A DNA stretch of 64,000 nt, taken from Candidatus Bathyarchaeia archaeon (lineage in GTDB: Archaea > Thermoproteota > Bathyarchaeia > Bathyarchaeales > Bathycorpusculaceae). The notes under the pieces are model-generated. The model was not told the origin of the DNA and did no database searches. It saw nothing but the letters and a program-made list of their open reading frames with translations. The stretch covers positions 1-64,000 of the forward strand of contig JBBFKZ010000002.1 of the NCBI GenBank assembly GCA_037481775.1, given 5' to 3'. A program made the translations under genes and the position numbers. This document shows positions 31,029-63,974 of this stretch, piece by piece; position 1 is the first letter of the stretch, and each line of letters begins with the position of its first letter.

Positions 31029-31922
31029 CTAGTATAGCTTAGCCCACTCGTCCACTATTCGTGTCATTTCAGCGAACCCGTGTTTGCTAAGCCACTCGCG
31101 GAAGTCACTGTTATTCACGGCGTATCTGCAGATTTGCCTTGCGTTTTCGGCGTCATGAACAAGCATGAGTGTGCCCATCAAGTTGTGCCTACTTAGATAA
31201 GCTACCGTCTTCAGCAAAGCGTCTGCTTTTTCGTCATTCAGCATTTCTGCGCTGACTTCTACAACAACCGGCTTCTTCAGAATTTTGACGAAATCCCTTG
31301 CTAGCAAGTCTACCCAGTAATTTGTCAAGTAATCCCGAGACGATAATGGTACATGGAAGTAATCTACCAATTCCGCTATGCGCTCGAAGTCTATTCCAAA
31401 CCTTTCTTTAGCAAGCACCGGGTCAGGGAACATTTCCACCGCGAAGGTGCCTTTAACCAAGCTTTTTGCCTTCTTAAGGAAACCAGTTATTTCCTGTGCT
31501 CGCCATTCTGTCCAGTTTAGTCCACTCTTTCGCCAAAGCTCAACGCATCGGGGGCAAACACAAAACTCTTCTTCTGGAAAATGATAAAGATTCAGCGTCA
31601 CTCCTTCGATGTTTTCTCTGCCGAGCTCTTCGATGTAACGCAGAATTTTTGCGCGGTATTCAGGATTTGTGGGACAAACGAAATCAAAAGGCAAGTTGAG
31701 CTTCCTATTCTTCCTTAAAGCTGGTCCATTGCTTGAAACTGCCACTGTGCTTGGGTCTTCTCGTATGGCTTCAGCGTCACAGAAGCATGTAACGTCATTC
31801 TGCATCTCTTTTGCAGCTGGAAAAACTGAGCCGTCAGCACGTTTCGAATAGTAAACATGCATGTCAAAGCCTTCAACTTTTTCCGGAGTATACGTGACCA
31901 ATCCTATTTTCATGCTTGTCAA
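31029..31922 (-). CDS. Unknown Cys-motif protein, glycoside-hydrolase-like TIM barrel (paralog 1)
   Basis: VCPTNPEYR, HFPEEEFCVCPRC and WTEWR motifs; aligns end to end with 33013-33912. Confidence 0.8.
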   Translation of the reverse strand: MTSMKIGLVTYTPEKVEGFDMHVYYSKRADGSVFPAAKEMQNDVTCFCDAEAIREDPSTVAVSSNGPALRKNRKLNLPFDFVCPTNPEYRAKILRYIEELGRENIEGVTLNLYHFPEEEFCVCPRCVELWRKSGLNWTEWRAQEITGFLKKAKSLVKGTFAVEMFPDPVLAKERFGIDFERIAELVDYFHVPLSSRDYLTNYWVDLLARDFVKILKKPVVVEVSAEMLNDEKADALLKTVAYLSRHNLMGTLMLVHDAENARQICRYAVNNSDFREWLSKHGFAEMTRIVDEWAKLY

Positions 31923-31975
31923 CTCTTAGCGCGCAACAGATATATTCAAGCGACTTATTTAATTGTTGACTCAAT

Positions 31976-32191
31976 ATGGGTAAACACAATCCAATAGTCG
32001 TTGACTACGCTAAATGTTCTCCATGCTCTGCGCTTATCTGCATTGGTGTTTGCCCATTAGGTGTTTTAGAAAAAGGCACAGACGGAAAACCAACAATAAC
32101 CGATGAGGCATACTGCAACCGATGCGGCGTCTGTGCGAGTCTGTGTCCTACACAAGCAATTACAATAACTCAAAATAGCAAAAGCAAATGA
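31976..32191 (+). CDS. Ferredoxin (4Fe-4S dicluster)
   Basis: CSPCSALICIGVCP and CNRCGVCASLCP motifs. Confidence 0.88.
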   Translation: MGKHNPIVVDYAKCSPCSALICIGVCPLGVLEKGTDGKPTITDEAYCNRCGVCASLCPTQAITITQNSKSK

Positions 32192-32194
32192 TGG

Positions 32195-32920
32195 GTGGAT
32201 GATTTTACGCAGCAAATCGAGCTCTTAGGCAACTGTGGAAAACTTGTTTTAAAAGATAACGTATTAGCCATATTATCCAACGTGGAACTAAGCACAGTAA
32301 GCTCCGCCATATACAATGGCGGCTTCAAAAAAGCAAAAGCAATACTTAATGTGCAAGCAACTGAAGAATACAGCGATAGGCAACTGCACGCTGACCCGCA
32401 GAAATTTATCTTGGAATCCGCCAAAAAGCTTGGGCTCCACGACAACTTTGTGGGGATGGTTACCGCCGCAGCAGTTGACAAGTTTGCTTTAGCTTCAAAG
32501 AAAGACGGAGAACTTGCAGTAAGCGTGGTTGCTACCGCTGTAGATCCAAAAGGTGAAACTTGTTCCCATGCTGAAACTGCAGGCGAACCCATAGAAGTCG
32601 AGGAGATAATTGGAACAATAAACATCATGGTAATGATAGATGGCAATCCTACTGAAAGCTGCCTCGTAAGCACCATAATCACCGCAACCGAGGCAAAATC
32701 AGCAGCAATGTGGGAACTGGGCATCAGAAGCAGATACTCCGGCGATTTAGCCACTGGAACCATAACGGATGCCGTAATTGTCGCTAAGACAGGCCGTGGC
32801 GCGCCAATAGTTTATGGAGGGCCGGCGTCAAAACTTGGCCAGCTTGTCGGATACTGCACACGAAAAGCCGTAAAAGAGACCTTGATGAAAGCCAACAAAT
32901 ATTGCAATAAAAAATGTTAA
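32195..32920 (+). CDS. cbiZ: Adenosylcobinamide amidohydrolase (CbiZ family)
   Basis: SSAIYNGG, GMVTAA, GTINI, TATEAK, ATGTITDA and YGGPASKLG motifs. Confidence 0.85.
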   Translation: MDDFTQQIELLGNCGKLVLKDNVLAILSNVELSTVSSAIYNGGFKKAKAILNVQATEEYSDRQLHADPQKFILESAKKLGLHDNFVGMVTAAAVDKFALASKKDGELAVSVVATAVDPKGETCSHAETAGEPIEVEEIIGTINIMVMIDGNPTESCLVSTIITATEAKSAAMWELGIRSRYSGDLATGTITDAVIVAKTGRGAPIVYGGPASKLGQLVGYCTRKAVKETLMKANKYCNKKC

Positions 32921-33012
32921 TAGTGCTTGTTGCGTGGAAAACTGAAAACCTTAAATAATTTGCAAGTTATTCCGTCTACAAAAATCATTAATGGTAATGG
33001 TGTGAGAATCAA

Positions 33013-33912
33013 TTGAAGTTTGCAACCTTTCTTTATCAACCGGAACCTGCTGAAGGTTTCGACATGAACTTTTACCGCATAAAACCAGAATCAGGAACAG
33101 TGGGCAAGCCGAATCCTCAGATGTACACTAACATCGCAGTGTTCGGAGACAACGCAATGGCGGCGAAACATCCAGAATGGATTTCCTTAAGCGCCGATGG
33201 CCCCGCGTTCCGTTCAAATAAAAAGTTCAATCTGCGCTGGGATGTCCTATGCATGACGAATCCTGAAGTTCGCGAGTACAACCTAAAACTAATCGAGGAA
33301 TGCGCAAGGCAAACGCCGGGCATAAGCATCAGCAGCCAGCACTTTGCGGAACACGCCTTCTGCACTTGCCCACGCTGTGTAGAGCTATGGCGAAAAAGCA
33401 AGCTGAATTGGATTGATTGGCGAGCTAAAACCGTGATCGAGTTTTTAGCTGAGGTTCGCGAACGCGTAGTTGGCAAGCCTCTGTTCGTGAATTGCCTACC
33501 AGACCCAGTTCTGGGCAAGGTGCGGTTTGGCTACGACTTTGACGCTATGGCTGAATACGCCGACTACTTTGTTGTTCCAATGTTCTCAAAGGCTTATCCA
33601 ACACCCTGGTACTGGGAGACATTGGCTAGAGCGTTTAAGAGCATCTTGAAGAAACCCGTGTTCGTAAACTTCTACGTGCGTGGTCCCGGTGAAACATGGG
33701 AAACAGTGGCGCCGCATAGGCAGATAATGACTGTGGCGACTCGCGCAGCGAGAACAGGCATCGATGGTATAATCTTTCTAGCTGAAAAGGCACAGTGGAT
33801 ACGGGAGTTCCAGAAGAAAGTGGTTGAGGACAAGGAATGGCGGAAAGAGCTCGAGGGCTACGGCGGCGACGACGTGCTGGAACTCTTTAACCGCTGGGAA
33901 AAACTTTTCTAA
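33013..33912 (+). CDS. Unknown Cys-motif protein, glycoside-hydrolase-like TIM barrel (paralog 2)
   Basis: LCMTNPEVR, HFAEHAFCTCPRC and WIDWR motifs; paralog of 31029-31922. Confidence 0.8.
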   Translation: MKFATFLYQPEPAEGFDMNFYRIKPESGTVGKPNPQMYTNIAVFGDNAMAAKHPEWISLSADGPAFRSNKKFNLRWDVLCMTNPEVREYNLKLIEECARQTPGISISSQHFAEHAFCTCPRCVELWRKSKLNWIDWRAKTVIEFLAEVRERVVGKPLFVNCLPDPVLGKVRFGYDFDAMAEYADYFVVPMFSKAYPTPWYWETLARAFKSILKKPVFVNFYVRGPGETWETVAPHRQIMTVATRAARTGIDGIIFLAEKAQWIREFQKKVVEDKEWRKELEGYGGDDVLELFNRWEKLF

Positions 33913-35623: not shown

Positions 35624-36370
35624 TTGTCCTATTCTCTAACATTTTCTCGCATTGAGTGTGATTTAGTGAAGCTTGTTGTCAACTGGAGCGGGGGCAAAGA
35701 ATGCTGCTTGGCGCTTCATAAAGTTATTAAGCAAGGTCATGAGGTTGCTTATCTTCTTTCTTACATTTACAAGGAGCCATATATTTTCCACAGTGTTCCA
35801 TTAATGGAGTTGCAGTCTAAAACTTTAGGTATCCCACACTTGAAGGTTAAGATTAAACGGTCATATGAGGATATTCTCGCGACGCTTTCGCGGCTTAAAA
35901 AAGAGGAAGACGTGGAAGGCTTTGTTACAGGCGATATTGTAGGTGCTGGCTGCGCGCAAGTTCATCAAACTTACTATGACGCCATGTGCGAGCAGTTGGG
36001 CATGAAGTTGCTTATGCCCAATGAGAATCCAGCTAGAAACACTTACGAAGTGTTAACCGAAGAAATTGCTGCAGGAATAATGCCCCTAATGAACTGTATT
36101 AATCTGGATCATTTTGGCGAGGAGTGGTTGGGGCGCGTGCTTGATGAGTATGCTATTAAAGATTTGAAGACTCTCGCTGACAAGCAGGGAATAGACGTTT
36201 GCAGCGAAGATGGCAGAGGCTTCCACACTATGGTTCTCGATGCACCGCTTTTTAAAGAGCGCCTAGAAATTGGCAAATTCAAAAAGAAGAAGTATAAGGA
36301 AAAGTCGAAGAACTGGAAAAGAAATTGGCTTTACATGGATATTAAAGAGGCATTTTTGAAACCCAAATAG
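35624..36370 (+). CDS. Dph6/diphthamide-synthase-like PP-loop ATPase (divergent)
   Basis: WSGGKEC (PP-loop variant), VTGDI, WLGR, DVCSEDGRGFHTMVLDAPLFK. Start is probably GTG 35666. Confidence 0.78.
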   Translation: MSYSLTFSRIECDLVKLVVNWSGGKECCLALHKVIKQGHEVAYLLSYIYKEPYIFHSVPLMELQSKTLGIPHLKVKIKRSYEDILATLSRLKKEEDVEGFVTGDIVGAGCAQVHQTYYDAMCEQLGMKLLMPNENPARNTYEVLTEEIAAGIMPLMNCINLDHFGEEWLGRVLDEYAIKDLKTLADKQGIDVCSEDGRGFHTMVLDAPLFKERLEIGKFKKKKYKEKSKNWKRNWLYMDIKEAFLKPK

Positions 36371-57135: not shown

Positions 57136-57570
57136 ATGTCATGGCTTAAATCTATGATGGAAAAAGAGCCACCTGAACCTGAAAACCCACTTGGAACCGT
57201 TGTTATCGGCAATCTTGAACCCGACATGCATGATACCGCCAAAGAAGCGGTTAGGAAGGCATTGAAGCGCGCTGGCTTCAAAACTGTCGATGCAGGCAAA
57301 AGTGTTGCACCGCAAGTTTTTGTAGACAAAGTCAAAGAGTCCAATGCTGATATACTGGCACTTTCAATTAACACGGTGCCTGCGAAAAACAACCTTGCAA
57401 AACTGGATGAATCGCTGAAAGCTGCTGGGCTTAAAGGAAAACTGATAATTATCATGGGCGGTGCCGCGGTGAAAAAGGAAGATGCTGATGCTTTCGGAGC
57501 TTTATTCGGTAAGAATAAGGAAGAAGGCGTTGAACTAGCAAAGAAAGCAATAGCTGAAAAGAAAAAGTAA
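57136..57570 (+). CDS. Stand-alone corrinoid (B12-binding domain) protein
   Basis: VVIGNLEPDMHDTAK (DxH base-off motif), DILALS and IMGGAAV motifs; no cap domain. Confidence 0.85.
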   Translation: MSWLKSMMEKEPPEPENPLGTVVIGNLEPDMHDTAKEAVRKALKRAGFKTVDAGKSVAPQVFVDKVKESNADILALSINTVPAKNNLAKLDESLKAAGLKGKLIIIMGGAAVKKEDADAFGALFGKNKEEGVELAKKAIAEKKK

Positions 57571-57593
57571 ATTTTAGGTTCAGATGAGGCAAG

Positions 57594-58502
57594 ATGTTTA
57601 AGTTCAATACAGAACAAAAGGTATACCAAATAGGAAAAGTGCAAGTAGGCGGTCAACCAGGAGAGCTACCAACTTTCTTGATAGGCTCTATTTTCTGGCT
57701 TGGTCAGAAAATGGTGCAAGACGCGAACAGAGGAATATTTGACGCAAAAGAAGCGGAAGCGATAATCAACAAGATGGAGACATTGCGCGACTTGACTGGT
57801 GTGCCATTTGCTTTAGATGTCGTTGGAACCACCGAGGAAGCTTTTTCAAAGTATATTCCTTTCGTTGCTGACAAAACTGATGCGCCGATTATGTTGGACG
57901 CCATGAGCCCGAAGACGCGTATGGCGGGCGCGGAAATCATCAAGAATGCTGGTCTTCAAGACAGGTGCATATACAACTCATTCTACAAAGGTGTCTCCAA
58001 AGCTGAAGCGGCGAAGGTCAAGGAATGCGGGATCACTGCGTCAATCGTGCTGGCTGACAATCCAAAGGATAATAGCCTTGAAGGGAAAATGCAAGTCTTA
58101 GAAGAAGCTTTAGCCTTGGCCAAAGAGGGTGGAATCACAAAACCGTTGATTGACACTGCTATTCCCGCGTTTGAACCAGACATGGGCACTGCTGTTAGAG
58201 CGATACCAAAAATAAAGGAGAAATACGGTCATCCGACGGGATTGGGCACTGGAAACGTTGTTACCACTATGGGCTGGGTTAAGGCACATGTTCCTAAGGA
58301 ATTCCGTCTTGGCACTAGAACTGCTACCAATGCTATAATGCAGACTCTGGGTGCTAACTGGCTGATGTTCGGGCCGGCTGAGCAGTCTGACTTCGTCTTC
58401 CCCGCAGTGGCTATAGTTGACACGTATATTGCATCTGCGATGGGCGACTTGGACATTAGACCGCTACATGAGCAGCATCCGATCTACAAGATCTTTCTCT
58501 AA
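57594..58502 (+). CDS. mtrH: MtrH-family pterin:corrinoid methyltransferase
   Basis: MFKFNTEQKV, GGQPGELPTFLIGSIF, IYNS, PLIDTA and GANWLMFGP motifs. Confidence 0.9.
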   Translation: MFKFNTEQKVYQIGKVQVGGQPGELPTFLIGSIFWLGQKMVQDANRGIFDAKEAEAIINKMETLRDLTGVPFALDVVGTTEEAFSKYIPFVADKTDAPIMLDAMSPKTRMAGAEIIKNAGLQDRCIYNSFYKGVSKAEAAKVKECGITASIVLADNPKDNSLEGKMQVLEEALALAKEGGITKPLIDTAIPAFEPDMGTAVRAIPKIKEKYGHPTGLGTGNVVTTMGWVKAHVPKEFRLGTRTATNAIMQTLGANWLMFGPAEQSDFVFPAVAIVDTYIASAMGDLDIRPLHEQHPIYKIFL

Positions 58503-58556
58503 TTCTCTCTTTTTATTTTTTGAAGTTTGCTTTAAATTTGTTGAAGGATAAAAAGG

Positions 58557-58943
58557 TTGAAGGCTTCTAGTTGGCTTGGAATAGTCTTATTATATACAGC
58601 TTTGACTCTGCTTTGTGTTTACCTGGTTCCTAGTGCTTCGCCATTTTCAGTATTCACGTACGTGTTTGGTTTCATCTTTGTTGCTGTTGTTCCAGGCTAT
58701 TGTCTTGTCAGCGTTTTGTTTCAGGAAGGGAAATTGGATTTAGTTGAAAAAGCTGTTTTGTCAGTGGCCCTAAGTTTCAGTATAGTTGGAGTTTCTGGGC
58801 TATTCTTAGGCTTATCACCAATAGGGATAACGGTGCCTTCGATTATAGTTTCCCTTACTAGCATCGTTGTGATTTTGGCTTTTCTAGCCTTTCTTAGGAA
58901 AAGAAAGCTCCGAGCACAAAGTGCCGAGCCAGTAAATGCCTAA
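58557..58943 (+). CDS. Small membrane protein (DUF1616-like)
   Basis: VPGY...LF and E...LSVALS motifs; 4 TM. Confidence 0.7.
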   Translation: MKASSWLGIVLLYTALTLLCVYLVPSASPFSVFTYVFGFIFVAVVPGYCLVSVLFQEGKLDLVEKAVLSVALSFSIVGVSGLFLGLSPIGITVPSIIVSLTSIVVILAFLAFLRKRKLRAQSAEPVNA

Positions 58944-59002
58944 AGTTTGTTTGCCATTAAAGGCATAGCTGAACATTTATGTGTGTTGCTTAGGATCTGG
59001 CT

Positions 59003-60451
59003 TCATCTTTTTCCTAACAGTGTCCTTAATGTTTTTCGTGGGTTTCTCATGGCTCTTATTATCTTGTCACGAGTAAAGATGGGATTAACAAGATTGGCTT
59101 GCATGCATAGGTCGCGCAGTTCATCGGCTGAAAATTCCGGCGTCTCAATAAGCGGTTCCGCGCCAGCTAAGGCCTCATCGCTGAAGCATTCTCTTAAGAA
59201 GCCTTCTCTTTTTGCTTGCTCATAAAGTCTAGTTCCATAGACGGGTGTGGCTATGCTGAAGACGAAGCTTTCTGCGCCGAGTTGCCGAAGCTTGTAGGCG
59301 TAGTTTATGGTTTCCTGTATGTCCTTTTTCGTTTCGCCTATGAAGCCTATTACAAAGAAGCAGCCTACCTTAATTCCAACTTTTTTGCATAGGGCAACAG
59401 CTTGCTCTACGCTCTTAAGGTCAAGACCTTTTTTGATAATTTGGTCTGCGACACGTTGTACACCAGACTCTGGCGCGACTCGGATTTTCTTGCATCCAGC
59501 CTTTTTCATTTTGGTTAAGAGTTTTTCGTCTAGAGTGTCTGCTCTGACGCCGTTTGGGGTGAACCATTCAAACTTCAAGCCTTTTTTTATGATGAGGTCG
59601 CAGATGTTTTCCATCCTTTTTCTGTCAAGAGTCATGTTATCGTCGAGAAAGTCGATCTGCTTAACATTGTAGGTTTTGATGACGTGTTCTATTTCGGCAA
59701 TCACGTTTTCGGGGCTTCTGCCACGCCATTTTCTTCCCCAAACTATGTGGTGCGTGCAAAAGATGCATTCGTATGGGCAGCCGCGGCTGGTTATCAGCGC
59801 CGTCCAGGGCTTGTAGATTTCGCCTCTAAGCGGGTTTTCTTTAACGGCTTCATAATACGCTTTGATTGGGAGAAGATGTCTTGCTGGAAAAGGAAGCGCG
59901 TCCAGATTCTCCAGCAAAGGCCGCGGCGGCGTGATGACTGGTGCGCCATTTTTTTTGAACCCTATTCCTTTTATTTGTTCAAAATTTCCTGCTTCCATGT
60001 CCAGTGCGTTGATTAATTCGTATATGGTGTTTTCTGGTTCACCTATAACGATGAAATCAACATTGGGATTTGCGAGGCAGCCCTCAGGACGCGCGGAAGG
60101 ATGCTGTCCCTCCAGCACCGTGCTGATGTTACTGTTAATGCTTTTTGCGATGGCTGCGACTTCAAACGCGGTTTTGGACCAGCCTGAAAATGGAATCTCC
60201 ACTACAATCGCATCTGGCGCCCAGCGTTTGAGCCTATCTGCTATTTCTGCGTTGCTTAAGCCGACGCGGTATTTTGTTTCATCCATGTGCTGTAGGTTTC
60301 GCCAGCCTTCTGTGGGCGCATCTATTATGCACACTTCATGCTGCTTTTCCAGTATGGCTGCTATGTACGCTAAGCCTATGGGTTGAAAAACGCTTGGTTT
60401 ACCCCATGCTTTCGGCTGAATGCGCGGCGGATTAATCAGGCAAACACGCAT
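59003..60451 (-). CDS. Cobalamin-binding radical SAM protein
   Basis: LINPP, PIGLAYIAA, GQHPS, GEPE, TSRGCPYECIFC and APESG motifs. Confidence 0.92.
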   Translation of the reverse strand: MRVCLINPPRIQPKAWGKPSVFQPIGLAYIAAILEKQHEVCIIDAPTEGWRNLQHMDETKYRVGLSNAEIADRLKRWAPDAIVVEIPFSGWSKTAFEVAAIAKSINSNISTVLEGQHPSARPEGCLANPNVDFIVIGEPENTIYELINALDMEAGNFEQIKGIGFKKNGAPVITPPRPLLENLDALPFPARHLLPIKAYYEAVKENPLRGEIYKPWTALITSRGCPYECIFCTHHIVWGRKWRGRSPENVIAEIEHVIKTYNVKQIDFLDDNMTLDRKRMENICDLIIKKGLKFEWFTPNGVRADTLDEKLLTKMKKAGCKKIRVAPESGVQRVADQIIKKGLDLKSVEQAVALCKKVGIKVGCFFVIGFIGETKKDIQETINYAYKLRQLGAESFVFSIATPVYGTRLYEQAKREGFLRECFSDEALAGAEPLIETPEFSADELRDLCMQANLVNPIFTRDKIIRAMRNPRKTLRTLLGKR

Positions 60452-60617
60452 AATGTGTACCTGCGTTCTGCAGTTTATTTTTTGTTGAACGCTGATGGCT
60501 CATGAGAATTTGGCGTTGCGGAGAAAACGTGCTGGCCATGGTGCACTGCATCCCTTTTTTGATGGAATTATTTGAGAACGTGCGATTAATAGGTTTTGCA
60601 GCTACGCCAGCCTGGAG

Positions 60618-61604
60618 TTAGTAGGGAAAAAAGTACATTCTCGTGAGCAAAATTATGGGTAAGCTTAAGAGTAGGCATAACAGCAGCGCGCCGTTCCTGA
60701 GTTTCAGTGCTTTTAGTATCTTGTCCGGGGTAAGCGGTTCGATTTGATCGCCGAGAATGTATTGCCCTGGCTTTTCCAGTTGCACGCGTAAGGCTCCTGC
60801 CATGGCTGCCATTGGCCAGCCGTGGTTTCTGCTGGGCGTTTTGGCGTGGTCTCGGCGGGCGATTTTCCATGCGGTTTTGTAGTCTTCTCCGATTATGGCG
60901 GCGGCTATCACGATAAGTACTGCGGTTAAGCGTGCTGGAACATAGTTGACTACCGTGTCGAGGTTTGCGCTGAACCAGCCTGTGTGGATGTGTTCGCTGT
61001 CTTTGAAGCCGACCATGCCATCGAGGGTGTTGACTGCTTTGAAGGCGATTGCGCCTGAAACGCCAAAGAACGAGTATGCAAGTATCGGTGAGATTTTGAA
61101 GTCGATTAGGTTTTCCGCCATGGATTCAATAACTGCGGAGCTGATTTGCGAGCCTGTTAGGTTTGTGGAGTCTCGCCGTGAAAAGTGCGAGTATTTCTTG
61201 GCTTCATTTAAGTCGTTTGCCGCGATGGCTGCGGTTGCCGCTTTTGCCCAGTCGGTTTCAAGCTTTATGCAAATCGTTAGCTTCAAGAGTATAATGGCAA
61301 ATGCTGCGTAGATTATTACGCCGAAAAAGACGTAGGCGGCCCATAATCCGAGGAAAATAGGGAGCGTTGAAGCTGCAATCACAGTTAACGCTAGCAGAGC
61401 ACCCTTTAGTTTGGCTACTTTGGGTTTTGCATCCTTAAAATGCGGCTCCAGCTTCTTGATAAGTTTGCCCATAAGCACGGCTGGATGTAGTTTGAAAGTA
61501 GTTTTCTCCGGGTAATTTGGCGATGGATCACCGATCAACAAGTCTAATGTCATCGCCAATAGGAGGACGGAAACAGCTACTGCCACAGCGATCATGCAAA
61601 CCAC
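60618..61604 (-). CDS. cbiB: Adenosylcobinamide-phosphate synthase CbiB/CobD
   Basis: DLLIGDP, HP, ESMAEN..D, KAVNTLDGMVG, PARL, SRNHGWPMAAMAGAL and LEKPG.Y motifs. Confidence 0.92.
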   Translation of the reverse strand: MVCMIAVAVAVSVLLLAMTLDLLIGDPSPNYPEKTTFKLHPAVLMGKLIKKLEPHFKDAKPKVAKLKGALLALTVIAASTLPIFLGLWAAYVFFGVIIYAAFAIILLKLTICIKLETDWAKAATAAIAANDLNEAKKYSHFSRRDSTNLTGSQISSAVIESMAENLIDFKISPILAYSFFGVSGAIAFKAVNTLDGMVGFKDSEHIHTGWFSANLDTVVNYVPARLTAVLIVIAAAIIGEDYKTAWKIARRDHAKTPSRNHGWPMAAMAGALRVQLEKPGQYILGDQIEPLTPDKILKALKLRNGALLLCLLLSLPIILLTRMYFFPY

Positions 61605-61851: not shown

Positions 61852-63974
61852 TCAAGTGCTGTTTTTGAGGAGTGTGATTACGTCTGGGAAGTCTATGCCG
61901 AGCGCTTTCGCCTTTTCTATTGTAGGCACTCCGTTGGGTGTCCAACCGCGACGCTTGTAAACTGCATCCTTCAACTTCTCATACTCCGCCTCGCGATGCC
62001 GCCTCAAAATGGCTATTTTCTCCTCTGTTGACTTGCCCGCGGGGTCGATGCCAAGCTTCTCCTTAAGCTGCTTATCATAGCGTTCTCTGCGGCTCTCATA
62101 CTCTTCCTTTGTGACTGGGCCGACGGCGCGGTATGGTATGGCGTCGTGTTCGCGTGTGCCATAGCCCATGCGCAGGTTGAAGATGCGCTGGAAATTGTAA
62201 ACCTTCTCGCTCATCAGTATCAAATCATCCACAGTAACTTTCTTGCCAGTAACCGCATAAAACAGCTTGGCATAATTCTCCACGTGCGCCATAACCTTTG
62301 CGGGCTCCTTCGTCTGCTTATTGTTTTCTGGCACAACATCGTTCCAGGGTAGCTTGCATAAGCCGTTAAGCCCGAACCATGTGCGCCACATGGGGAACCA
62401 ATGCAAGCTCTCGGCTTTCTGCTCGAACGTAGGCATCAAGTTATGCACCATGTCTAGGAATATCAGCCACGCCTCGTCATGCTGCGGGCCCTTCAATGTC
62501 AGCCCATAGCCGCCCTGCTGCGCCAGCGACTCCTTAGTAACATACTCTGAAAACTCTAAGCCCTTCGCCTCCATCCCAATGTCGTTCATAATAGCCGGGT
62601 CTGCACCGTATTTCTCGGCGAAAATCTTTTTCATCCGCCTTATGCCCTGCCCCACAACGGCGCCGAAGCCTTCGCCCCGCGCCATCTGATGCACCAGCTC
62701 CAGCGCCGCATCCTTGTTGCCGAACCGCAAATCCAATCCGCCTGTAGCTTCCTTGCCGATTAAGCCCATTTCGTAGCATTCCATGGCGAAAGCCGTAGCA
62801 GTGCCAACGCTTATGGTGTCCAATCCGTAGATGTCACAGTAAAAGTTCATCTCAATAACATGATCAACATCGAAGATGCCGCAGTTACTGCCAACCGCCG
62901 CTGCAGTCTATACTCTGGGCCAGTAACGAACACCTTTTGCCCCTTGTACGGGCCAGTTTTAAGCTCAAAGTCCTTGACGACATGTGCGCATGACAGAGCG
63001 CAGCCCATCCAGCAGCCGTCAAAACCCTTATGGAACTTGTTGCGGTAAACTTCACGTCCAAGCTTTTCAGCTTCAGGATGTGAACCATAACGGAAATTGT
63101 TCACGGGCAGCAAGTCGAAATTGTTCATTGCTGACACAAGCTGCGGCGACCCGATAATGGACATTTCATTCTGTTTCGGATCAAGCATTCTTATCTCCCT
63201 GTTATGGGCAGTTCCGACCTCCTTCACCAATGCCGCGTCAGCGGGACCGTTACTTTCAACTGTTATCCGCCCAGAATACTTGACAACAATGGCTTTTATC
63301 CGCTTGTTCCGCAGCACCGTGCCTATGCCGCCTCTGCCCGCCTGCTTCAGCCGGTGCACACGCCTAGCCGCGTCATACCATGAAACATTTAAGCAGCCGA
63401 TCAATGTGTGCTCCGCGCCTGGTCCAGAGGAAACCACAGATATGCTGATCGGATTTTCCTTACCATACTTCTCCGCCAATATGTCAGTAATCAAGTGCGC
63501 TTCCGAGGGCAACTCGTCAGCGGTTTCCACCTGAACCTTGCATTCATCCCCGTCAATGAATATGACCACTTCAGATTTTGGCTTGCCCTGCACTTCAAGC
63601 GCATCCCAACCGGCGAACTTCAAGTAAGGCCCAAAGTAGCCGCCGACGTTAGAGTCCACAACCATATTAGTTAACGGCGAAATGGAAACCGCAATGCTTT
63701 TGCCGCTGCCAGGATAAACCGGAATGCCGCCTAAGGGGCCTGAGGCAATGCAGATTTCGTTTTCCGGATCATCCCACCGCACAACGCGGTCTTTGGGCAA
63801 AGCGTTCCAGAGCAGCCACAAGTTGAAGCCGCGGCCACCCGTGAACGTTTCCTTCATCTTCTCAGAAACTGGTTTGCTGGCAATTTGCATGCTGGAGAGA
63901 TTCACGTAAAGCGTCCTGTTATTGTAGCCTCTCTCCACCTTTCCCGGTTCATACTTAAACTCTGCAAGTATCAA
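61852..63974 (-). pseudogene. aor: Aldehyde:ferredoxin oxidoreductase family gene split by a single-base frameshift
   Basis: The N-half (62847-63974) and C-half (61852-62850) join into GPEYETAAAVGSNCGIFD if one G is restored between 62910 and 62909 (GAG TAT [G]AG ACT). Confidence 0.85.

Follow-up and report, generated by a model that had tools for sequence, protein, structure and literature searches.

In this study, we analyzed a window of 64,000 nucleotides (positions 1 to 64,000 of contig JBBFKZ010000002.1, GenBank assembly GCA_037481775.1) from a Bathyarchaeia archaeon, whose genome (1.82 Mb) is 96.7% complete. Within this window, two barrel proteins, here called TIM1 and TIM2, are encoded on either side of a ferredoxin gene and a gene for the amidohydrolase CbiZ. 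We found that the genes of this cluster are conserved and inherited together as a module, with a tie to B12 salvage. TIM1 and TIM2 are not working glycosidases of a known kind, and their function is probably new. We give a slightly better than even chance to the reading in which the TIM family in Bathyarchaeia, taken as a whole, is an uncharacterised accessory module of corrinoid (B12) uptake and salvage. In addition, we infer that a corrinoid is the ligand, that the ancestral chemistry was hydrolytic, and that the paralogs act jointly. The features of the cluster are as follows.

31029..31922, minus strand: TIM1, an open reading frame (ORF) of 297 aa; barrel paralog of the GH42/GHL-like (beta/alpha)8 kind, with a Cys4 site.
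31914..31975, no strand: divergent intergenic DNA between TIM1 and the ferredoxin gene, with two A+T-rich TATA-like elements, GATATATTC and CTTATTTAATTGTTGA.
31976..32191, plus strand: ferredoxin, 71 aa, two-cluster 2x[4Fe-4S] type, with matches to Fer4, Fer4_10 and Fer4_7.
32195..32920, plus strand: CbiZ, 241 aa, short form; adenosylcobinamide amidohydrolase family, PF01955.
33013..33912, plus strand: TIM2, an ORF of 299 aa; second barrel paralog.

In anoxic sediments, Bathyarchaeia are an abundant group, and they rely heavily on B12 enzymes. The processing of imported corrinoids before use in anaerobes and archaea (such as removal of foreign ligands, reduction and remodelling) is only partly known, and the barrel family is a concrete candidate for a missing step of this processing. 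If this is true, a glycosidase scaffold would have been recruited to cofactor metabolism and then duplicated into residue-depleted paralogs. According to the available part of a previous study, there are 7-20 B12-type radical S-adenosylmethionine (SAM) genes per Bathyarchaeia genome, many lineages only salvage corrinoids, and CbiZ adjoins BtuFCD in Bathyarchaeota (PMC11697101). The barrels are not mentioned in that part of the paper.

An earlier note on this DNA had described four ORFs in which two barrels, paralogous from end to end, flank a ferredoxin-CbiZ unit, and our analysis bears this out. TIM1 (residues 4-297) and TIM2 (residues 1-299) share 115 of 300 aligned positions (38%, BLASTP, E = 4e-71), a similarity far beyond chance. 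The pair described by the note exists, but the genome holds three paralogs, the third (TIM3) lying on contig C19:9739-10629 with 54% identity to TIM2. Similarly, the motifs quoted in the note are present, but NPE, WxxWR and the His of "HF" are features of the lineage and not of the whole family.

To describe the distribution of the family, we compared 201 sampled genomes of the class; below, f1, f5, f8, f11 and f29 denote families, g3 denotes a genus, and G-numbers denote genomes (G000 is the genome studied here). The barrel family is carried by 27 of the 201 genomes, with three to four copies per genome in f1 and f5 and a single copy in f8, f11 and f29. A profile search against 1.84 billion representative proteins returned 159 matches at E <= 0.001, many of them fragments, and 27 at E <= 1e-30. 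Most members are from Bathyarchaeia; a few come from Bacillota metagenome-assembled genomes (MAGs), a Halobacteria MAG and Dethiobacter alkaliphilus, and a protein atlas agrees with this distribution. Longer or fused barrel forms were not found at E <= 1e-5, which is weak evidence. A metagenome scan with protein P0174 as query gave no match, and our literature searches returned no paper tying the barrel family, DUF4015 or GHL10 to cobalamin.

Besides this genome, 21 f1/f5 genomes carry the family, and the arrangement of the cluster was compared in 16 of these. All 16 related loci, which belong to two families (f1 and f5), have kept the order TIM1, ferredoxin, CbiZ/CbiS, TIM2. For the ferredoxin, 13 orthologs were found by BLAST of ORFs and three, as short ORFs under the 70-aa threshold, by tblastn. 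Unrelated genes were inserted in four loci: a histidine kinase in G190, a methyltransferase in G154, three ORFs in G196, and a 909-aa ORF, together with an inverted TIM2, in G124. In the f1 loci outside the own genus, identity to the proteins of the window was 70-89% for TIM2, 68-80% for TIM1, 50-65% for CbiZ, and 44-62% for the ferredoxin. TIM2 was at least as conserved as TIM1, and both were more conserved than CbiZ, in 10 of 10 such loci. By these identities, TIM2 is the best-conserved protein of the cluster despite the residue loss described below. Furthermore, CbiZ occurs in 26 of the 27 family-carrying genomes against 49 of the 201 overall, although these genomes are kin and not independent. 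CbiZ/CbiS, which is encoded between the barrels and co-occurs with them, is unrelated to them in sequence and fold family.

The loss of the family is also informative. Four g3 genomes (96-97% complete) have no barrel paralog by a search with the family hidden Markov model. Their locus holds a B12-binding protein, MtrH, DUF1616, CbiS, an Asn-synthase-like gene and M48, without TIM2, the ferredoxin, TIM1 and the adjacent nitrilase-type amidase; CbiS is kept. The ortholog of this amidase is absent from the whole genome in all four. Across f1/f5, it was found in 22/22 genomes with the barrel family and in 0/13 without. Thus, all paralogs (including the unlinked ones), the amidase and the locus ferredoxin were gained or lost together, while CbiS can stay. 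Because CbiS is kept in four genomes without barrels, the barrels are not obligatory for CbiS. The co-loss of all paralogs fits joint action, which by itself would not imply physical binding in a heterodimer, as the earlier note had proposed.

Single-copy relatives give a second line of evidence. In all five single-copy genomes, the barrel gene abuts corrinoid genes (CobT and the corrinoid ATPase of these contexts were identified by NCBIfam). In the three f8 genomes, btuF, the barrel gene, a radical SAM gene, btuC and btuD follow one another with gaps of 1-100 nt, and cbiB-cobT-cbiZ-cobS-cobY is divergent from them. In the f11 genome, the series is btuF-TIM-btuC-btuD, and the divergent genes are cobD, a Cys-rich small protein (zf), cobQ, cbiB, cbiS and cobS. 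In the f29 genome, the barrel gene is divergent from a PduO-type adenosyltransferase gene. A metagenome scan with an f29-type member yielded 79 loci, comprising 73 of the f29 type, five of the f8 type and one other. The PduO gene lies about 70 nt away on the opposite strand in 62/62 of the f29-type loci with more than 200 nt upstream, and three long f8-type metagenome loci repeat the btu/cbi layout. Homologs are therefore co-located with each other and with corrinoid genes. These contexts point to a stage between import or adenosylation and the rebuilding of the nucleotide loop. Because the moment shared by the three contexts is just after corrinoid import, we favour a corrinoid-processing role. 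The earlier note had proposed remodelling of the lower ligand or side chains of cobamides; the tie to cobamides is strong by gene context, but the specific role is only one of several that fit. A possible objection, namely that f29-type hosts have no loop-assembly genes and so could not remodel cobamides, was rejected, since G200 has CobS and CbiB.

Two further observations concern genes beside the single-copy barrels. PduO heads an operon with an ATP-binding cassette (ABC) ATPase and two ABC-2 permeases in 16/17 long f29-type loci (L076 and 16 further), and this operon may be an unrecognised corrinoid transporter. Meanwhile, btuD of the f8 clusters is followed by the gene of a DUF4443 protein whose DNA-binding domain is CggR-like (L049:12070-12723; L048:1980-2597). 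This protein is also found 2.7 kb from a TIM4 copy (L055:11506-12183), and it is a candidate regulator of these genes.

The structural results showed that the barrels are GH42/GHL-like, as the earlier note had supposed, with agreement among Pfam, Foldseek, the structural search and profile alignment. The AlphaFold2 model of TIM2 (pLDDT 90.9, pTM 0.89) is a single-domain (beta/alpha)8 barrel. TIM1 was modelled with less certainty (pLDDT 71.0): its first 80 residues are poor, and the barrel starts from about residue 80. In an all-against-all structural search, the top solved matches of TIM2 were all glycosidase barrels: the PgaB hydrolase domain 6au1 (Z 20.6, root-mean-square deviation (rmsd) 3.3, 270 residues), Cwp19 5oq2 (Z 20.4), Paenibacillus fucosidase 6tvk (Z 19.8), PgaB 4F9D (Z 18.5) and GH42 enzymes (Z 15.4-16.8). 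Foldseek likewise placed glycosidase barrels nearest. We take GH153, GHL10 and GH151 to be the family labels of the top-matching structures.

Sequence profiles gave weaker signals in the same direction. In Pfam, TIM2 matched DUF4838 (PF16126) at 29.8 bits (cut-off 26.6) over residues 29-129 only, and DUF4015 (PF13200) at 26.2 bits, under the cut-off of 27. TIM1 matched GHL10 (PF02638) at 14.7 bits, under the cut-off of 27.9. A relative of the f8 type cleared the DUF4015 cut-off with 34.1 bits. Neither TIM1 nor TIM2 matched Glyco_hydro_42 or PF01261 in Pfam at E <= 0.1, NCBIfam had no family for either of them, and a single-sequence search of the PDB with the barrels gave chance matches only (E >= 0.38). 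A profile of 24 diverse members matched the DUF4015-like uncharacterised structure 4s1a (E 0.0011) and, weakly, GH42 3TTS (E 0.04).

The comparison with known enzymes shows likenesses and differences. The GH42 enzymes (3TTS of Bacillus circulans and 1KWK of Thermus A4) have the same (beta/alpha)8 barrel. By strand order, the strand-7 Glu of TIM1 and the single-copy relatives may correspond to the nucleophile Glu of GH42; TIM2 has Asn219. However, GH42 chains have 644-688 aa with extra domains, whereas TIM1 and TIM2 are single domains of 297-299 aa, and GH42 genes lie with sugar genes, whereas TIM1 and TIM2 are found in a cytoplasmic B12 gene context. The PgaB C-terminal domain (6AU1, 4F9D) and Cwp19 (5OQ2) align with TIM2 over 240-270 residues at rmsd 3.0-4.0, but with sequence identity of just 9-15%. 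These are secreted or cell-wall enzymes acting on exopolysaccharide or peptidoglycan, and we know of no Cys4 site in them.

According to the part of PMC8573354 available, the catalytic motifs of GH42 are Asn147-Glu148 and Met304-Glu305, with the acid/base Glu in an Asn-Glu-Tyr motif where strand 4 ends. In the weak profile alignment with 3TTS (E 0.04), the Asn-Glu of the acid/base falls on F111-A112 of TIM2 and on F-P in TIM1 and the consensus. Thus, the acid/base position is non-acidic in both proteins. This alignment and the residue patterns below agree with the claim of the earlier note that the canonical acid/base residue is missing. No intact glycosidase active site was found in TIM1 or TIM2, in line with its view that they are not glycosidases; single-copy relatives do have an Asp/Glu pair.

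The barrels were grouped by an unrooted maximum-likelihood tree of 78 members, with which quick trees agree (residues are numbered as in TIM2). The 52 f1/f5 paralogs were split from the 26 other rows with ultrafast bootstrap/SH-aLRT support of 100/99. Within the paralogs, there was a TIM1 group of 17 rows (100/99) and a TIM2/3/4 group of 35 rows (100/100). With a root among the 26 other rows, the tree would place the duplication in the common ancestor of f1 and f5. The 64 distinct PduO-adjacent sequences have D107 in 64/64, E114 in 63/64 and E219 in 64/64, and K24, D46, R67, D77, D164, R171, D184 and Y195 are also conserved among them. By the secondary structure of the models, D107 is placed where strand 4 ends, and E219 is inside strand 7. 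The catalytic pair of clan-type glycosidases is found at these places. D107 was replaced in 52/52 paralogs (Asn or Cys in TIM1, Ser in TIM2, Asn in TIM3/4), while an acid persists at 113 or 114. E219 was kept in 17/17 TIM1 rows and replaced by Asn, Gly, Ser or Ala in 35/35 TIM2/3/4 rows. For instance, TIM1 of this genome has the Glu (E222, strand 219-224) and an Asn at the position of the strand-4 Asp. Its TIM2 has S107 and N219, so that both acids are gone. From these loss patterns, TIM1 and TIM2 are residue-depleted descendants of an apparently active enzyme.

In addition, position 110, which is the His of "HF", is His in 17/17 TIM1 rows, in 32/35 TIM2/3/4 rows (the other three have Tyr) and in f8 proteins. 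It is Cys in 64/64 PduO-adjacent proteins and mostly Gly elsewhere. This His/Cys exchange at the mouth of the barrel might be the sign of a residue that ligates a metal or cobalt.

Only seven columns (G28, C80, C117, C119, C122, G173 and Y195) were invariant among the 24 diverse members, and the Cys4 columns make up four of these seven. C80 and C117-x-C119-x-x-C122 align column for column with the C...CxCxxC cluster of 3TTS in the profile alignment (E 0.04). In the accessible part of PMC8573354, Cys113/153/155/158 of GH42 form a zinc site, and earlier work on 3TTS is cited there for a role of this site in stabilising the structure and not in catalysis. Only some GH42 enzymes carry such a Cys4 zinc cluster. 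Since the Cys4 site aligns with this structural site, zinc or another mononuclear metal is the default, and from the alignment we would expect zinc. The proposal of an Fe-S enzyme in the earlier note gains no support from this result. The explanation that we favour is that this small family of cytoplasmic barrels of about 300 aa descends from a GH42/GHL-type glycosidase lineage and kept its Cys4 metal site.

On the basis of these results, we proposed the following course for the accessory module. The single-copy ancestral form would be an enzyme with the strand-4 Asp and the strand-7 Glu, and it would act on newly imported corrinoid, at the time of its adenosylation or afterwards. This would precede the rebuilding of the nucleotide loop by CbiB, CobY, CobT and CobS, and the enzyme would be a remodelling or processing hydrolase with a role like that of CbiR or CbiZ. 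In the order to which this genome belongs, duplication would have given a TIM1 lineage and a TIM2/3/4 lineage; both may have lost the Asp, and TIM2/3/4 the Glu as well. The barrels would now form a co-inherited and co-regulated module with the ferredoxin, CbiZ/CbiS and the nitrilase-type amidase. The paralogs probably act together and are largely non-catalytic, so that they would bind the corrinoid or present it to CbiZ and would not cut sugars.

CbiZ acts on adenosylated corrinoids. In the part of PMC7733943 available, CbiR is described as a cobamide remodelling phosphodiesterase of Akkermansia that acts on adenosylated cobamides, and as a TIM barrel of an unexpected superfamily that was recognised from cobamide salvage loci. 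Since both CbiZ and CbiR act on adenosylated corrinoids, an adenosyltransferase partner fits a processing or remodelling enzyme. As far as the same part of that source goes, CbiR is also a TIM barrel in the same kind of genomic place as the barrels studied here, and thus it is their closest functional analogy. However, CbiR belongs to the AP endonuclease 2/xylose isomerase-like superfamily (PF01261) and has His/Asp/Glu metal ligands (PMC7733943, in part), whereas the present barrels are glycosidase-like with a Cys4 site; the likeness to CbiR is one of role alone.

A more specific form of the proposal is possible, and we put it forward only tentatively. It supposes a new B12-processing class on a GH42-like scaffold, in which the Asp/Glu pair would cleave the ribosyl or nucleotide-loop part of an adenosylated cobamide, as a third remodelling route beside CbiZ and CbiR. 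In the lineage of this genome, the class would take the form of a hetero-oligomer of a semi-catalytic TIM1 and acid-less TIM2/3/4 proteins with the ferredoxin, CbiZ and the amidase. The Cys4 site would perhaps be re-used as a redox or cobalt-facing centre.

Several results weigh against a role of the whole family in corrinoid salvage. The 16 syntenic loci are kin and do not amount to 16 independent observations. A search with protein P0136 returned two Bacillota homologs, neither of which has a corrinoid gene at a distance of up to 8 kb (0/2); their neighbours include fumarate hydratase, amine oxidase, regulators and parts of sugar-type ABC systems. Eight unlinked paralog loci (TIM3/TIM4 and an extra copy in G086) have no CbiZ, CobS, CbiB, Btu or PduO neighbour; at one of them, a B12 radical SAM gene and an amidohydrolase lie at a distance of 5-6 kb. 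TIM3 of this genome lies by GAPDH/PGK, a PNP-family phosphorylase and adenosine kinase. In addition, the genome carries btuF-btuC-btuD, a diphthamide-synthase-like gene and cobT-cobS-cobY on C3, cobD-cbiB and a second short CbiZ on C8, a CobA-type adenosyltransferase on C7, and a cobZ-like gene. With the complete known salvage set elsewhere in the genome, no known step is left for the barrels. To our knowledge, there is no precedent for a glycoside hydrolase fold acting on a corrinoid. The closest structures are all enzymes of polysaccharides or oligosaccharides, and all source names of family members are "hypothetical protein". The placement of the Asp and Glu on strands 4 and 7 follows the predicted secondary structure of the models and not a superposition at the residue level. 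A PduO-type adenosyltransferase was not found in this genome. The idea that the barrels replace a missing adenosyltransferase was rejected, since the genome has the CobA-type gene.

Other explanations were considered. It is rather unlikely that the barrels are a ferredoxin-dependent corrinoid reductase or upper-ligand processor, that is, an archaeal counterpart in role of PduS or CblC. Here, a redox-active Cys4 site (Fe(Cys)4 or Fe-S) would take electrons from the ferredoxin and reduce or dealkylate the corrinoid before the adenosyltransferase and then CbiZ act on it. This comes near to what the earlier note had proposed. This agrees with the four Cys as the most conserved feature of the family, with a ferredoxin that is co-operonic in 16/16 f1/f5 loci, and with the small radical SAM gene after the barrel in f8-type btu operons. 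The 62/62 pairing with a PduO-type adenosyltransferase would also suit it, because PduO needs reduced cobalt. Furthermore, CxCxxC is placed five residues past the catalytic-acid position in the GH42 alignment, and thus near the pocket, and at position 110 the f1/f5/f8 proteins have His, where 64/64 of the f29 type have Cys. However, the Cys4 site is homologous to the zinc site of GH42 described as structural and non-catalytic, and C-x-C-x-x-C spacing is generally typical of a mononuclear site and not of a cubane. The f11 and f29 contexts have no ferredoxin or radical SAM gene beside the barrel, and the strict Asp/Glu pair of the single-copy forms suggests acid-base chemistry over electron transfer. 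A literature search on corrinoid reductases in archaea found nothing relevant. We place still less weight on purely non-catalytic carriers or chaperones, which would hold the corrinoid on the C-terminal face of the barrel and pass it to CbiZ, the adenosyltransferase, or B12-dependent radical SAM or methyltransferase proteins. TIM2/3/4 lack all candidate acids, and still no protein of the cluster is better conserved than TIM2; there are also three to four paralogs per genome in these B12-rich organisms (the window has three B12-radical-SAM genes and a B12-binding/MtrH pair). TIM barrels also cap the corrin in many B12 enzymes, as stated in the available part of PMC7733943. However, the invariant Asp/Glu/Glu set of the single-copy forms would be superfluous for a mere carrier, and co-inheritance with the amidase and CbiZ suggests a pathway and not cofactor delivery.

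Two hydrolytic explanations leave the corrinoid aside. In one, which seems to us very improbable, the barrels would hydrolyse an adenosyl or ribosyl by-product, for example as a 5'-deoxyadenosine or alpha-riboside nucleosidase that clears products of radical SAM or B12 enzymes. The glycosidase-like fold and the Asp/Glu pair are compatible with this, as are the adenosyl-related neighbours (PduO, radical SAM, and a B12-radical-SAM gene convergent with TIM2), the PNP-family phosphorylase and adenosine kinase near TIM3 of this genome, and SAM synthetase near two other loci. But it explains neither the position inside btuF-X-btuCD operons nor the loss of the acid pair in 52/52 paralogs, and neighbours from nucleoside metabolism are not recurrent. 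In the other, to which we give hardly any credence, the proteins are ordinary glycoside hydrolases of the GHL10/DUF4015 kind that act on polysaccharide and lie near B12 genes by chance. The DUF4838 score of TIM2 above cut-off (29.8 against 26.6 bits), its near miss for DUF4015 (26.2 against 27) and the glycosidases among the best structural matches, which were all of this type, speak for it. However, no signal peptide was read by eye in the translations at either N-terminus, Ala or Pro stands at the acid/base position, and neither TIM1 nor TIM2 has the full Asp/Glu pair. Furthermore, genes of sugar transport or catabolism are not recurrent nearby, whereas corrinoid neighbours recur in separate lineages.

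For the other features of the locus, TIM1 orthologs begin with MKIGLVTY, and the genome search matched 31032-31913. From this comparison, the true start of TIM1 is probably the ATG at 31913, giving 294 aa. With this start, the ferredoxin lies 62 bp away; the 53 bp given by the earlier note hold for the ORF as called. The ferredoxin end and the CbiZ start are 3 nt apart. The 16-mer CTTATTTAATTGTTGA was exact in 10 of the 12 f1 loci compared, had two to three changes in the other two, and was absent from both f5 loci compared. This unusually conserved DNA at 31914..31975 is probably a bidirectional promoter shared by TIM1 and the ferredoxin-CbiZ-TIM2 unit. Within the window, no match to an Rfam family reached the gathering score, the cobalamin riboswitch included, and no RNA holder is listed for the region.

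The CbiZ ORF matched PF01955 with 159.7 bits (cut-off 27, profile positions 5-191 of 191). Against the CbiS model NF038002 of NCBIfam, it scored 105.3 bits versus a cut-off of 250, over positions 10-191 of 335 only. Judged by these matches, ORF 32195-32920 is a CbiZ without the C-terminal phosphatase part and not a bifunctional CbiS, which adds an alpha-ribazole phosphatase to the amidohydrolase. A separate PgpA-like gene is found in this genome on contig C3:86113-86592, adjoining btuF. Meanwhile, the CbiZ orthologs outside the own genus have 341-391 aa. One relative, in G064 (385 aa), has a PgpA-like C-terminal domain, and the ortholog in G110 matches positions 7-264 of 335 of the CbiS model with 113.5 bits, under the 250-bit cut-off. 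G064 also has a B12-binding domain match with one in-frame TAG at C3:364469-364720.

Some neighbouring genes recur. We found that PP-loop amide-forming enzymes are recurrent in corrinoid clusters of Bathyarchaeia. A Diphthami_syn_2 gene (G000:C3:81855-82529) lies inside the btuFCD-X-cobT-cobS-cobY operon of this genome, and a second PP-loop copy, under the Dph6 cut-off, lies in the window at 35624-36370(+), 1.7 kb from TIM2. At the end of the f8 clusters there are Diphthami_syn_2 and an Asn-synthase-like gene (L049:13592-15166), and f1 loci have an Asn-synthase-like gene beside the amidase (L033:2480-3460). These enzymes may re-amidate corrinoid carboxylates. In addition, PGK-GAPDH adjoins TIM2 in G110 (L033:9377-11699) and TIM3 in this genome (C19, L053:5121-7474), which looks like a swap of flanks through recombination between paralogs. 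An M48 peptidase of 349-362 aa beside the cluster in relatives is represented here by two ORFs of 253 and 83 aa (G000:C2:124967-126031), and the M48 peptidase of this genome may be broken.

Finally, a second corrinoid island was found in the window at 57136-61604. It includes a B12-binding protein, an MtrH-like methyltransferase, DUF1616, a B12 radical SAM gene at 59003-60451(-) and a second CbiB paralog at 60618-61604(-). In f5 and g3 relatives, the TIM cluster has the B12-binding/MtrH/DUF1616 trio as its immediate neighbour. In the same window, an aldehyde:ferredoxin oxidoreductase is encoded by two ORFs with a 4-nt overlap, at 61852-62850(-) and 62847-63974(-). One of them corresponds to AFOR_N and the start of AFOR_C and the other to AFOR_C positions 118-385, so that the gene is either split or frameshifted.

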